This document shows positions 3,280-43,002 of a stretch of DNA of 64,000 nt, in pieces. Position 1 is the first letter of the stretch, and each line of letters starts with the position of its first letter. The position numbers and the translations under genes were made by a program. The notes under the pieces were generated by a model. The model ran no database searches. It worked only from the letters and a program-made list of their open reading frames with translations, and was not told the origin of the DNA. The DNA is taken from the NCBI GenBank assembly GCA_951406725.2, contig OX597829.1, forward strand, positions 45,942,001 through 46,006,000, given 5' to 3'. Source of the DNA: Octopus vulgaris (lineage: Eukaryota).

Positions 3280-3889
3280 TCACCATATTGTATTACGCAT
3301 GCGCGGAAGTGTTTGTTCGACTAGGTGTTGCTGGCTTTATTACACACGACATCAAGTTAGAGAAGGGGTGCGTATCATACGCAAGGTTTAGGTTTTTCAG
3401 ATGTACAGTCCCCTAAAAATCCCCTGCGCATTATACTCAAGGGCAGACTATACTCGAGGATTTACGGTATATCGTTGCCAGACCAGAACTGTCCTCTGCA
3501 GTCGCCGGAACTGCCATATTGTAAATTTCAATGTTGTAGTGCGGTCCCCCCACCCCACTAGGCATGAAACCGAAAGGAAGTTGTCTATCCATGAAAGTTC
3601 GGGTAAAAAATCTGTCACTGAGGAGCTCAGAACAGGGTGAAATCACGTGATCTGGCAGTTCCGGCGACCGTAGACGATAGTTCTCGTCTGTCAACGATAT
3701 ACCGTAAATCCTCGAGTATAGTCCGCCCTTGAGTATAATACGTAGGGGATTTTTAGGGGACTGTACATCTGAAAAACCTAAACCTTGTGTATGATACGCA
3801 CCCCTTCCCTAACTTGAGTCGTGTGTAATTAAGCCAGCAACACCTAGTCGAACAAACACTTCCGTGCATGCGTAATACAATAATGGTGA
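3280..3889. repeat. Long imperfect inverted repeat, arms 3280-3530 and 3638-3889
   Basis: The arms are reverse complements over ~250 bp; the HHR spans the spacer/right-arm junction. Confidence 0.92.
3612..3658 (+). ncRNA. Type I hammerhead ribozyme motif (canonical core)
   Basis: CTGTCA-CTGAGGA-GCTC(agaaca)GGGT-GAAA-TCACGTGA-TC-TGGCAG. 6-bp stem I, palindromic stem III ATCACGTGAT, AUC triplet. Confidence 0.8.
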
Positions 3890-4215
3890 TGTTCTTAACT
3901 GTTATATGGGAATGTAAATATGTTTGCAAATTGTTTGCGTTACGTGTTATTCTGTATTCTGAATACTTTTATTTTAATAAATGTTGCTTATTGCAAGTTA
4001 TGGATGATTCTTTTATGACTTCATTGCTTTCAGGCTTAGCTTAAGGTATTTTCACGCCCGACATCACAAAATGCGTTTAAATAAACATTGCCGGACAGCA
4101 AATAGAGACTCGGACATTGCTTAGAAAATATTTTTCATTTTTAACCAACGTACTAGGGATTTTGACCTTTAAATTTTAGAAAAACAAAATGCAGATAATA
4201 CTCGAGGATTTAAGG
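3702..4215. mobile_element. Tc1/mariner-pogo-type MITE
   Basis: TIRs CCGTAAATCCTCGAGTAT / ATACTCGAGGATTTAAGG (1 mismatch), with TA on both sides; non-coding. Confidence 0.8.
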
Positions 4216-4499
4216 TATATTCGAGTGCTTTTATGTACTACGAGTCCATATGAAAGGTCCTCACTACGTGAATAATGCAGTATTCTGTGTCCTAACATAA
4301 CATCCATGTTAAGTCGGTGATAAAGCTTGCCTTTAGTAGTAATACTGCTTCTGTCGCTATTCAATTATATATATCTATGTGTATATATATATATGTGTGT
4401 GTGTGTGTGTGTGTGTGTGTGTGTGTGTGTGTGTGTGTGTGTGTGTGTGTGTGTGTGTGAGTTTATGCATATATATATATATATATATATATATATATA

Positions 4500-4890
4500 T
4501 ACTAGCAGTATCGCCCGGCGTTGCTCGGGTTTGTAAGGAAAATAACTATATAAGCATTTTAGAGAGTTATAGCCAAAAAATAGCAAAAAAATGCATCAAA
4601 AATGGAAAAAAATGATGGTAATTTTTTTTAATAATCGTTGACTCATCGTAGACATTTTTAGAGAGTTACTTCCCTTATATAATAGCGAAAAAGATGCATT
4701 AAAATGGAAAAAAATGATGGTAAATTTTTTTTAAATCGTAGACTCATCGTAGACGCGCGCTAATACCCAGAAGGGCTCGATATGAATCACGACTATAAGA
4801 TACCCGGTTTTGGTTAAACTGCACCGCAAAATGTGGGAGTAGTTAGGAATCTAAATCGTAGGAGACAGACACACAACCTTACTTTTTATA
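4500..4890 (+). mobile_element. Non-autonomous Helitron/Helentron-like element
   Basis: Starts ACTAGCAGTATCGCCCGGCGTTGCTCGGG (subterminal hairpin) and ends ACAGACACACAA..TTTTATATATA, inside (TA)n. The same 5' end occurs at 9151. Confidence 0.6.
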
Positions 4891-5544
4891 TATATAATAT
4901 ATATATATATATATATATATATATATATATATATATATATATATATGTATATGTATATGTATATATACTTTTCATTACGTATTATACACTCGTCAATATC
5001 CAGGTTTATAAACGCACATTATAACGTAGGCGTTTTCATAGCTGTATGCTATTTGCTCTGAATTTTCTCTGAATTTTCAGAAAAACGCTTTCAGACTCTG
5101 AAATAAGCCAAAACGAATACGGCAATAAAACTTATTAAAATTCTATAAATTATATTCAACAAATTATTGCAGAGAAAACGTCAAACACCTGCACCTTAGA
5201 ATATGCTGCTTGGTAGTTTGTTAATCAGAGTATTATCATCTCATGCACAAACAATATATATACGCACACACTCGTATACCAAGCCGTGTACAAGCATATA
5301 GACATACAGAGACAGATGCGATGCACATATATACACCATACTCACAAAAGCAGACGCATGCACACGCACACACACACACGCACACGCACACGTTCATCTA
5401 TTGATACATACGTACACTCAAAAATAACAACTTCAAAACAAAATTTTGGAAAATAAACGAAAAATATTTCCTCTAACATACATTTTTAACATTTTTCTCC
5501 TTCTCCGTATCCTCCCCGTTTCTTCCTCTGTCTATCTTTTCTAA

Positions 5545-40615: not shown

Positions 40616-41031
40616 ATATTATAATGTAACATAATATACTATGAATACAATATAAGATATAACATAAAAAATCATTAAAAACCAAATGAGACAACAATTT
40701 GTTTCGACTTATATACATTATTTGATTTATAAACAATTTGTATACATATATATATATATAAGTCTCTTCAGAGCTTTGGTTCAAAAGACAGATGAAATTC
40801 CGTGTGAAAGGACGCCTGGATTGTAAAAAAAAGTTTTGCAATCCAGCTCTTTCACGCGGAATTTCGTCTGTCTTTTGAGCCAAAACCATAAGGAGACTTA
40901 TATACAAGGATATGAATTGTTTATAAATCAAATAATGTATACATGTCGAAACAAATTGTTGGCTCTTTTGGTTTTTTAATGATTTTTTATGTCATCATGT
41001 ATCATATTATATTCATAGTATATTATAATAT
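40616..41031. repeat. Diverged long inverted repeat centred near 40830
   Basis: CTGGATTGTAAAA..TTTTGCAATCCAG at the centre; the arms match out to ATATTATAAT at both ends. Confidence 0.88.
40681..40780 (-). ncRNA. Type I hammerhead motif with long stem II
   Basis: Minus: CCAAAGCT-CTGAAGA-GACTTATATA[loop]TATATAAGTC-GAAA-CAAATTG-TT-GTCTCATTTGG. The mirror arm supplies a better stem I strand, GGCTCTTTTGG. Confidence 0.65.
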
Positions 41032-41253
41032 ATTATAAATAAATTATTAGATTATCAATTAAATCTATATTTAATTTATTGAGTATATGTATGTATGTAT
41101 GTATACATATGCATGTATATGTATAGATATATACAATATATATATATATATATATATATATATATATATATATATATATATAGATAGATAGATAGATAGA
41201 TAGATAGATAGATAGATAGATAGATAGATAGATAGATATATACAATATATGTA

Positions 41254-42544
41254 CGAGGGGCGTTCAATAAGTAATGCCCCTGACCCACTTCCCATAGCAG
41301 TAGAGCAACGAAACTTGGCACAGTTATTAGTCTTTTTCTACATAGGAACCACCCAGATTTACGCATTTCTCCCATTGTTTGATGCAGCTCTGGAGACCGT
41401 TTTTGTAGAAGACCCCAGCTTGGTCCTCCAACCTGAACGTGACTTCAGAAATCAAGGCTGCATCATCTGGGAAACGCTTTCCTTTCAAAAACAACTTCAT
41501 GACTGGGAAGAGGTGAAAATCAGAGGGTGCAAGGTCAGGAAAGTAGGGAGATGGGGGAGGAGTTCATAGCCATACGCCTGTGCTTCTGATCTGGCGACAA
41601 GCGAGTTGTGGACCAGAGCGTTGTCCTGCAGGAGGAGGATGTCTTTGCTGATCTTCCCCCGCCTCTTGATTTTGATAACTTCTCTTAATTTCCTCAAAAG
41701 TGAAGCATAATAGGCTCCTGCAATTGTGGTACCCTTTGCCAGGAAATATGTCATCACTACTCCGTCCTGGTCCCAGAAGACTGTGAGCATGACCTTGCCA
41801 GCGGAGGGCTGCACCCTTGCCTTCTTTGGAGGGGGTGAGTCACGGTGCTTCCTCTGCATTGACTGGGCTTTGGTCTCTGGATCATCGTGATGAACCCAAG
41901 TTTCATCCTTGTGTAATCAGTCTTTTGAAAAATTTTGACTCATCTTCTTGGCACATCTCCAAATTCACCCTCGAGCACTCGACGCGTTCTTGCTTCTGGA
42001 AAGGCGTGAGCAGCCTGGGAATCCATCTGGCAGACACCTTTTGCATATGCAAATGGTCATGAATGATAGTTTCCACAGACCCGGTACTAATCTTGACCTC
42101 ATGGGCTATTTGGCGAATAATTATGCGTCGATCTTCCAAAATGGCAGCCTCAACTTGACGGACAGATGCCTCATCAATGGCAGAAGGGGCGACCAGATCT
42201 GGGAGCTGTTTCCATAGAGTTCCGACCATGTTTGAATTCACGATGTCAGCGTTTTACAAGGTCATATGATGGGGCATCATCACCATAAGTTACTTTCATT
42301 TCATCAAAAGTCTCCCGTGGTGTGCGTCCTTTCAAATACAAAAACCGGATCACTGCTCGACACTCAACAGGCTCCATTTCACACTTGACTCGGTTCAAAC
42401 ACCTGTAAATCAAAAATCACAATTAATTCAGAGCTGTAATTTGCCACTTATTCTATAGAGATATAAATGATTGCACATGCAAAATTTCACCTAGATCCAA
42501 CAACTGCAAGTGGGTCAGAGGCATTACTTATTGAACGTCCCTCG
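41254..42544 (-). mobile_element. Full-length (1291 bp) mariner element with a transposase pseudogene
   Basis: TIRs CGAGGGGCGTTCAATAAGTAATGCC / GGCATTACTTATTGAACGTCCCTCG with TA flanks. Motifs KVSARWIPRLLT, GKVMLTVFWD, LLQDNA, frameshifted PDLAPSDF. Confidence 0.95.
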
Positions 42545-42913
42545 TATGTATATATATATATATATATATATATATATACTTTATAGTGGTAAAGTAAATT
42601 ATTTTACTTTACCCTATTTTTATAAAGTAATATTTCAAATATACCGTAAATGGTCGTTTTACATACCAAACACTACTCGGTCGAATTAATTAATAATCAA
42701 TTAATTTTACCCTTTTTTATTGACAGTATATATATATATATATATATATATATATATATATATATATATATATATATATATATATTATATATATATATTA
42801 TATACATATGTATTTGTAACACACACACACATAATAAAAACAATTTTACATTGAAGTGAAGGATTTCTCGATATACTTGATAGAGTACAAACTTATTATT
42901 CGGTAACAGGAAC

Positions 42914-43002
42914 TGGCAGTAACTTCGAAGTCTGGGTTTGCTAAACCATCATCAGACAGTCCGATGAAAGCTTAGCTGGTCGAAACTTCGACGTCGCTGT
43001 CA
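42914..43002. ncRNA. Head-to-head pair of hammerhead-like motifs (+ copy at 42955-43001)
   Basis: +: GACAGT-CCGATGA-AAGCTTAGCTGGTC-GAAA-CTTCGACG-TC-GCTGTC. -: GACTGT-CTGATGA-TGGTTT(agc)AAACC..ACTTCGAAGT-T-ACTGCC (GAAA decayed). Confidence 0.55.

Follow-up and report, generated by a model that had tools for sequence, protein, structure and literature searches.

The 64-kb window of Octopus vulgaris DNA analyzed here (64,000 nucleotides of contig OX597829.1) holds a series of short inverted pairs that carry hammerhead ribozyme (HHR) motifs and share many features with insertions of Penelope-like elements (PLEs). The window is AT-rich, simple repeats make up 24% of it, and self-comparison and profile searches revealed an abundance of repeats resembling short interspersed nuclear elements (SINEs), along with decayed fragments of mariner and of long interspersed nuclear elements (LINEs). 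An original prediction, made from the letters alone, had named seven loci (L1 to L7) and described diverging inverted arms with the point of inversion in or beside the ribozyme. All seven pairs of arms were recovered by self-comparison of the window and alignment, with identities of 65 to 100%. Once simple repeats were masked, 16 inverted matches with short spacers were left, L1 to L6 among them and L7 under that score cut, as against none in nine of ten shuffles and two in the remaining one. The arms are the following:

L1, 3280-3516 and 3653-3889: 94% identical, 15 differences per 238 columns
L2, 16354-16488 and 16634-16748: 96 of 135 columns identical
L3, 19781-19974 and 20054-20247: 186 of 194 identical
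L4, 22553-22742 and 22886-23075: 99.5% identical
L5, 31875-32057 and 32058-32240: 183 of 183 identical
L6, 40569-40828 and 40834-41081: 217 of 266 identical
L7, 42894-42957 and 42959-43027: 45 of 69 identical, the lowest of the seven

At each locus the HHR motif consists of a core heptamer, helix II, GAAA, a short and mostly palindromic helix III, a UH cleavage site and helix I. A minimal type I motif of this kind, lying near the 3′ end of the copies, is present at all seven loci and, when two further pairs (57298-57370 and 7089-7214) are counted, at 9/9. The HHR-sense strand reads outward from the centre in 7/7 loci (one-sided p 0.008 if polarity were random) and in 9/9 with the same two pairs; the outward polarity originally described thus stands, and random polarity was not seen. 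A strict HHR descriptor gave eight matches, compared with zero to two in each of 20 shuffles, and caught L1, L2, L5 and two solo copies only; the motifs of L3, L4 and L7 come from a looser scan run without a shuffle control, and that of L6, which has a very long helix II, was recognized by eye. The Rfam model Hammerhead_1 (RF00163) scored 26.3 bits on L1, below its cut-off of 34, and did not match L2 or L7 when these were searched alone (three loci, L1, L2 and L7, were tested locally); over the whole window no Rfam family reached its gathering score, the matches listed (150 of 375) being microsatellite-driven and of miRNA type only. Minimum-energy folds give the intended helices in some copies only (e.g., L5 and the solo copy at 21542), and the predicted self-duplex energies of helix III range from −0.2 to −13.3 kcal/mol. 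The motifs are varied. Core position 4 is a C in L3, L7 and the solo copy at 29146, and helix II is unusually long and AU-rich in two minus-strand HHRs, at 40700-40771 (L6, ~70 nt) and 7579-7643; a relationship between L6 and the solo copy at 7643 was not accepted, since 13 of 500 shuffles of this AT-rich sequence reach its score. In the L5 family, the C3-G8 pair is swapped to G3-C8 (31999, 32116 and 21542) and kept so in two loci, between which differences at the helix II loop are compensated. An alignment of 11 HHR copies made without guidance put L4 in the wrong place and was discarded.

The individual copies at L2 to L7, together with the other pairs and solo motifs of the window, are listed below, with predicted cleavage sites:

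16361-16507, minus strand: L2 inverted copy without a tail, made up of the HHR region and 15 nt of a tRNA-like head; HHR core 16453, cleavage after 16418
16514-16770, plus strand: L2 forward copy, tRNA-like RNA polymerase III (Pol III) head, degenerate HHR at 16669, tail of ~20 nt
19781-19990, minus strand: L3 tail-less copy, HHR core 19982 with the start of the copy 8 nt ahead of it; cleavage after 19950
19992-20316, plus strand: L3 tailed copy, 69-nt tail at 20248-20316; 96% arm from 20054, inside helix II
22464-22742, minus strand: L4 tailed copy, starting 7 nt after the cleavage site; ~90-nt tail; ends at (TA)n
22743-23072, plus strand: L4 centre and tail-less copy, running up to (TA)n; HHR core 22834, cleavage after 22878
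31875-32299: L5, perfect palindrome of 183 + 183 nt centred on 32057/32058; cores 31999 (minus) and 32116 (plus); microsatellite on both sides
21487-21567, minus strand: solo copy of the L5 family with a G3:C8 core; its first base is that of the L5 junction
40569-41081: L6, an older pair, junction 40829-40833, ~55 nt before the core; core 40771 (minus), plus-strand copy degenerate
42832-43027: L7, centred on 42958, which lies within helix I (5′ strand); minus-strand core 42955, plus-strand core 42961; 62-nt tail on the left, 42832-42893
57298-57370: eighth pair (57340), homologous to L7 on both sides of a shared junction; right end approximate
7089-7214: additional head-to-head pair, degenerate HHR halves on both arms; absent from the original list
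1317, 7643, 21542 and 29146: solo HHRs without an inverted partner

Each of L2 to L7 is a head-to-head pair with an inverted, 5′-truncated copy, as PLE insertions are, L1 being composite. A tail is found on one arm only at L2, L3, L4, L5 and L7 (about 20, 69, 90, 59 and 62 nt, respectively), and a target of PLE type, i.e., a duplication of 8-12 bp or (TA)n, was found at three of the seven loci. The whole L2 unit lies within a 12-bp target-site duplication (16349-16360 and 16771-16782) located inside a SINE, and L4 and L5 are flanked by (TA)n or mixed microsatellite. L4 has two relatives in the window, at 42588-42713 and about 19345-19460, which are single-armed, have the same 3′ end including the tail and are shorter at the 5′ side. 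Both arms of L5 contain a 34-nt duplication that the solo copy does not have, its 59-nt tail is present on the right only, and the last 12 nt of the solo copy at 29146 are common to the L5 tail, a similar end being found at 22430 beside L4. The loci had been put forward as independent, which does not hold for all of them: L3 and L7 have a common tail (0/500 shuffles), their tail-less ends being 8 nt apart in shared family sequence, and the L7 junction recurs at 57340, where the two pairs align over one junction with the same unpaired central base (0/500 shuffles). The junctions of L3 and L7 differ despite the common tail, and the two centres were rejected as copies of each other (27/500 shuffles reach the score).

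The forward copy of L2 begins with an A box (16521-16531) and a B box (16565-16575) spaced 33 nt apart, as in tRNA-derived SINEs, in which the two boxes stand 30-35 nt apart near the 5′ end; the observation concerns one locus, and the B box has one mismatch to the consensus printed in the accessible text of PMC8969392. ARAGORN found no tRNA gene in the L2 head. At the L2 junction the first bases of the head form a 15-bp hairpin, so that the turn falls at the 5′ end of the head, and the inverted copy does not contain ~105 nt present in the forward copy; the start of the inverted copy at 16507 was set by eye (offsets −54 and −90). The unit at 16361-16770, in which the tRNA-like head is fused to an HHR-bearing 3′ end of PLE type, is a candidate SINE moved by Penelope machinery. 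Sm-alpha, a tRNA-related HHR-bearing repeat of Schistosoma, provides a precedent. A tRNA-like head at 19039-19110 resembles that of L2 (0/500 shuffles) and has a different body.

Measured from the cleavage site, the junctions lie at 0 (L1), +7 (L4), −37 (L7), −40 (57340), −41 or −24 (L3, by its inner palindrome or its long arm), −90 (L2), −94 (L5) and −134 (L6). Two of these eight are no more than 10 nt away from the cut (p 0.19 against a uniform null of the analysts' choosing), and the other six are situated ~35-135 nt upstream of the cleavage site, with the whole HHR kept on at least one arm; the templates copied at those six were therefore uncleaved. Some proximity to the ribozyme is built into the sample: because the loci were recognized by their HHR, junctions are forced near or above it. 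In 4/8 loci (L1 forward copy, L3, L7 and 57340), the longer copy has its start at the helix I edge, 2-10 nt ahead of the core, a clustering with p 0.001 (0.008 without 57340, 0.053 without 57340 and L3) under a uniform null picked after the data had been seen; this tendency fits the start of a template RNA as well as it fits any effect of the fold. One start, 24-25 nt before a core, is shared to the base by the L5 centre, the internal 34-nt duplication of L5 and the solo copy at 21567, and the recurring starts (L5 family, L7/57340, L2 head) look like template 5′ ends. The words "shortly upstream" of the original description correspond, at L2, L5 and L6, to turns ~55-155 nt before the core (52-155 nt when the functional core is taken). 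As to the individual breakpoints, 22886 is 3 bp after the HHR, as stated, when counted from helix I and 7 nt after it when counted from the cleavage site; 20054 is where the 96% arm of L3 starts, inside helix II, and L3 has in addition an inner imperfect palindrome centred on 19991, at which its tail-less copy starts; the proposed breakpoint at 3638 depends on a match of 6 nt, after which come two gaps, the good arm running from 3653, so that the true position is somewhere in 3638-3653.

Six of the seven loci are probably short non-coding 3′-end insertions (pseudo-long terminal repeats, pseudo-LTRs) of HHR-bearing PLEs in which two copies were set head to head. The junction probably marks where the copied RNA began, or else a 5′ truncation of the usual sort, and not the ribozyme cut. 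What can be read directly from the sequence comprises the outward polarity, the one-sided tails, the (TA)n flanks of L4 and L5, the L2 duplication, the single-armed relatives with the same 3′ end and the shared starts. A PLE protein acting in trans would nick both strands of an AT-rich target, and each DNA end would prime reverse transcription of element RNA from one or the other of two closely spaced starts, so that one arm would be tailed and the other tail-less. Both complementary DNAs (cDNAs) would then extend across the uncleaved HHR as far as the RNA 5′ end, or stop early, and the two cDNA ends would be joined head to head. The junction would come to lie near the HHR because the template RNAs begin a short way ahead of it (2-25 nt from the core at L3, L7, 57340 and in the L5 family unit) or at the Pol III start (L2). 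In L4, the tailed arm starts after the HHR and the tail-less arm includes it, so that each has sequence that the other lacks; at the 5′ end the shorter of the two is the tailed arm, an outcome that a fold-back copy of a single cDNA cannot give.

Such an architecture is already in print, and the structures of the window are of a known kind. The assignment to Penelope-like elements and the outward polarity, both part of the original prediction, hold and are found in the accessible text of three papers (Arkhipova et al., 2013, PMC3846280; Cervera and de la Pena, 2014, PMC4209133; Craig et al., 2021, PMC8557442). Craig et al. (2021) describe an adjacent inverted 5′-truncated copy, a one-sided tail of 30-40 bp and (TA)n targets, Arkhipova et al. 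(2013) report junction palindromes between head-to-head copies and duplications of 8-10 bp, and Cervera and de la Pena (2014) describe minimal HHRs, with opposite-strand pairs 100-700 bp apart in Schistosoma.

Several observations weigh against the explanation preferred here. The L1 and L4 junctions are at the cleavage site or 7 nt after it. The argument from L4, that neither arm contains the other, assumes that the L4 centre is upstream family sequence. Directly upstream of the tailed arm of L4 lies a second HHR-like core on the minus strand (22743-22763, core 22763), without helix II, whose possible cut site would fall on the junction and which allows another reading of this locus; the two central cores of L4 were rejected as copies of each other (320/500 shuffles reach the score). 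The zero-spacer palindrome of L5, with its duplicated 34 nt, fits fold-back of one cDNA at least as well as two primings. No convincing target duplication was found at L1, L3, L6 and L7, the best direct repeats there being 6-7 nt long, and the tails of 20-90 nt extend beyond the 30-40 nt given in the accessible descriptions of published PLE insertions. Finally, no autonomous element is linked to the pairs: a search covering 150 of 246 candidate frames matched no PLE reverse transcriptase (RT) or GIY-YIG domain, as is expected for stubs.

The main rival concerns the joining step. One cDNA, or an antisense template, would fold back via a small hairpin and copy itself, and the second end would be trimmed at integration, with no part played by the HHR. 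As an account of the whole set this is somewhat unlikely, yet it shares with two separate primings the notion of a template 5′ end and may hold at some loci, L5 above all. Self-priming has been proposed for the junction palindromes of PLEs (Arkhipova et al., 2013), loops of zero to 11 nt are present at L2, L3, L5, L6 and L7, and the arms of L5 are identical even in the 34-nt duplication that is absent from the solo copy. Apart from L4, however, L3 also has arms of which neither contains the other if its arm starts at 20054, and at L2 the inverted copy falls short of the forward one by the ~105 nt mentioned above, for which a later deletion is possible.

Alternatively, inversions might be old and single, each fixed in a palindromic non-autonomous family that then spread whole, by PLE machinery or as DNA transposons with long terminal inverted repeats (TIRs). 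The common junction and unpaired central base of L7 and 57340, the start that L5 shares with its solo copy, and the palindromes of 18 and 38 bp reported at pseudo-LTR 5′ ends (Arkhipova et al., 2013, accessible text) all favour such a history, which is nevertheless unlikely: the relatives of L4 and L5 in the window are single-armed, L3 has the tail of L7 and a different junction, and one-sided tails and a 12-bp duplication are unlike TIR transposons. Breakpoints fixed within each family, as expected of long-TIR transposons, had been named beforehand as evidence that would refute the ribozyme-linked inversion; starts are indeed fixed in part (L5 with the solo copy at 21567, L7 with 57340), but the symmetric fixed termini of such transposons are missing from these families, which have one-sided tails and single-armed relatives instead.

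L1 was built differently, and its features are as follows:

3280-3516, minus strand: inverted copy, 49 nt of the HHR element from the cleavage site and the first 188 nt of a miniature inverted-repeat transposable element (MITE); ends inside the MITE
3517-3608: centre; its first 14 nt pair imperfectly with 3638-3652
3609-3701, plus strand: 5′ part of the HHR element with a type I HHR at 3612-3658 (core 3618; helix III palindromic; cut predicted at 3652/3653)
3702-4215: MITE of 514 bp, 20-bp TIRs (17/20 matching), TA duplication at 3700-3701 and 4216-4217
4218-4350, plus strand: HHR element continued past the MITE; right end approximate

The 514-bp MITE sits inside the HHR element of L1. Besides its TIRs and TA duplication, it has an empty site and many copies with sharp ends, as revealed by contigs of public runs (X1 and X2, DNA by guess) over 3487-4086, a span that leaves the right end of the MITE outside. 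Contig depth is nil up to 3586, ~6,000 (X2) at 3627-3666 and 10^5-10^6 from ~3700 to the end; depth of this kind is not copy number, the step at the MITE edge amounting to two orders of magnitude. At 3697-3700 there is an accumulation of loose contig ends (X2, 264 contigs; X1, 341) with mixed AT-rich flanks; 25 and 30 contigs depart from the reference at 3701 with one common continuation, the empty site. In the window, the partner terminal repeat lies at 4196-4215, the MITE has TA on both sides, and after it comes that same continuation, which the first 30 nt at 4218 match at 26/30 positions (by eye). The MITE is very abundant, and internally deleted variants are seen in the contigs. Its terminus, presumably Tc2/pogo-like, had no match in viral contigs.

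Since the L1 arms are mostly MITE and the inverted piece ends inside it, positions 3280 and 3889 are not element 3′ ends; the proposal that both outer ends of a pair are element 3′ ends is false for L1 and elsewhere only approximate, one arm being tailed. At least the outer part of the inversion is younger than the MITE, given that the inverted arm includes 188 nt of it. The arms differ at 6/49 positions in their HHR part and at 9/189 in their MITE part (p 0.09), a difference compatible with an older pair that was overwritten afterwards. In the forward copy, homology to the family begins 8-9 nt ahead of the core, at 3609-3610 (among the contig ends listed), and the centre at 3517-3608 has next to no contig depth in three runs. 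No strand change was found among the four contig joints listed for the L1 family, all of which are skips, a weak negative because contigs collapse inverted repeats. No support was found for deriving the left flank, by decay, from what follows the MITE (42/500 shuffles reach the score) or for taking the centre to be a decayed second HHR (355/500). L1 therefore stands apart from the other loci. It would be an inverted duplication that arose later, in an HHR element into which the MITE had already inserted, most simply through template switching at the imperfect 14-nt palindrome. Nested MITEs can mimic the arms of inverted pairs.

Two readings give the ribozyme itself a part. In the first, the HHR would set the start of the PLE template in cells, copies beginning at the 5′ edge of helix I (L1 forward copy, L3, L7 and 57340) or at the scissile bond (L1 inverted copy and L4); L1 would then be a retro-copy of a self-cleaved read-through RNA with the MITE as passenger, and the first genomic trace of HHR cleavage in a PLE, and L2 a tRNA-headed SINE moved by Penelope machinery. 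This combination appears doubtful. Decidedly unlikely, in turn, is the model first put forward, in which the HHR fold or the self-cleaved 5′ end makes the RT stall, fold back or switch template, so that the ribozyme sets the inversion point. In its favour, the good arm of L1 runs from the first base after the predicted cut (3653), L4 turns 7 nt after its own, and half of the longer copies start at the edge of helix I, with the p value obtained under the post hoc null. Such a trigger is, however, unsupported at most loci: six of the eight junctions are upstream of the cut, on templates left uncleaved; the distant turns of L2, L5 and L6, the predominance of MITE in the arms of L1, the strongest example of a breakpoint at the cleavage site, and the sampling of loci by their HHR all speak against it, as does, weakly, the lack of a strand change among the L1-family joints listed. 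In the accessible text of published work, HHR mutants of a PLE insert normally in vitro and no RNA reads end at the cleavage site (Frangieh et al., 2024, PMC11167929), and Naiads, which have no canonical HHRs, form the same inverted structures, the function of the HHR being described as unclear (Craig et al., 2021). Within the window, a pair of similar build at 49786-49943, a 158-bp near-perfect palindrome flanked by short TA runs, has no HHR that could be seen and may be a PLE stub or a MITE.

An origin of some pairs in DNA-level rearrangement or assembly error (replication or repair template switching at L1, a mis-assembled palindrome at L5) is very improbable for the whole set, as it leaves the 9/9 outward polarity unexplained and the older loci, whose arms have diverged, are not artefacts. 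For L5 taken alone it is improbable, the 183/183 identity without a spacer standing against a one-sided tail like that of older loci. For L1 alone the chances are about even: the duplicated piece spans the boundary between HHR element and MITE and stops inside the latter, and the inner 14 nt pair imperfectly, like a fold-back primer, while the retro-copy of a cleaved read-through RNA competes with this origin, as do the unequal differences in the two parts of the arms.

The role of the PLE hammerhead and the origin of head-to-head junctions are open questions in published work. Judged by title and accessible text, no paper found in the literature searches maps inversion points relative to the HHR or has a two-priming proposal for these junctions. 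Eight or nine pairs from about six families in 64 kb are good material for a genome-wide comparison of starts with the ribozyme, and they also suit a test of two primings against fold-back, neither of which the window alone settles; minor points that deserve attention of their own are the tRNA-headed unit of L2 and the swapped G3:C8 pair of L5.

The remainder of the window is populated by other repeats. Two decayed copies of a mariner-type transposase (PF01359), 68% alike, lie at 41262-42082 and 60818-61688, and broken fragments of non-LTR retrotransposons at 11200-13470 and 37480-38400, with weak zf-RVT and Exo_endo_phos matches below cut-off. A SINE-like family of ~400 bp is abundant (14864-15272 and many other places), and neighbouring copies of it in opposite orientation give inverted matches (e.g., 23275-24826) that are unrelated to the HHR pairs. 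A second abundant SINE-like family, of ~230 bp (1838-2080 and relatives), forms a partial head-to-tail array at 50690-51218. Metagenome scans gave no match for the L5 motif and one for the L7 junction (L001), which was rejected as a chance match of 24 nt on a contig of 64% GC without further similarity.

The insertions of endonuclease-bearing PLEs, as far as the accessible accounts go (Arkhipova et al., 2013; Craig et al., 2021), are like the pairs described here in their inverted copy, junction palindromes, one-sided tail and (TA)n targets, and their target duplications of 8-10 bp are similar in size to the 12 bp of L2. They differ from the window units, which have no open reading frame, measure 130-430 bp as a whole, bear tails of 20-90 nt, include in L2 a tRNA-like head and have no autonomous partner identified. 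The HHRs resemble those of PLEs in their core heptamer, in the extra base before helix II (several copies), in a palindromic helix III suited to dimer cleavage and in their strong variety within one genome, and differ by the G3-C8 pair of the L5 family, where the accessible text of Cervera and de la Pena (2014) has U3-A8, by the C at position 4 in L3, L7 and 29146, and by the ~70-nt helix II of L6; cleavage in the window is predicted only. The same paper maps the end of a Drosophila virilis intron to the 5′ end of helix I, and a C3G/G8C double change has been found to restore cleavage in part (Frangieh et al., 2024). The latter work, on the Poseidon element PAc of Anolis carolinensis, reports in its accessible part that both target strands are cut and extended, that uncleaved RNA is the template and that RT begins at two starts matching the tail, which, being close together, would explain a tailed and a tail-less arm; it does not treat the formation of inverted junctions, and no protein is known for the window families.

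Beyond PLEs themselves, the likeness to MITEs of TA-duplicating TIR transposons (Tc1/mariner superfamily), which extends to 20-bp repeats, TA duplication, sharp ends and depth, is limited to the 514-bp insert of L1, the HHR-bearing arms of the other loci not being of that type. Animal non-LTR retrozymes, tandem dependants of PLEs according to the accessible text of PMC7229834 and of Li et al. (2026; bioRxiv 10.64898/2026.07.22.740005), are alike in being non-coding, in their type I HHR and in their proposed dependence on PLEs. Head-to-tail tandem HHR units were not found in the window, and its self-comparison showed no partial tandem copies (direct pseudo-LTRs) other than the 34-nt 5′ duplication of L5. 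On the one hand, retrozymes form head-to-tail tandem arrays with one HHR per unit; on the other hand, the elements of the window are single head-to-head pairs or solo stubs.

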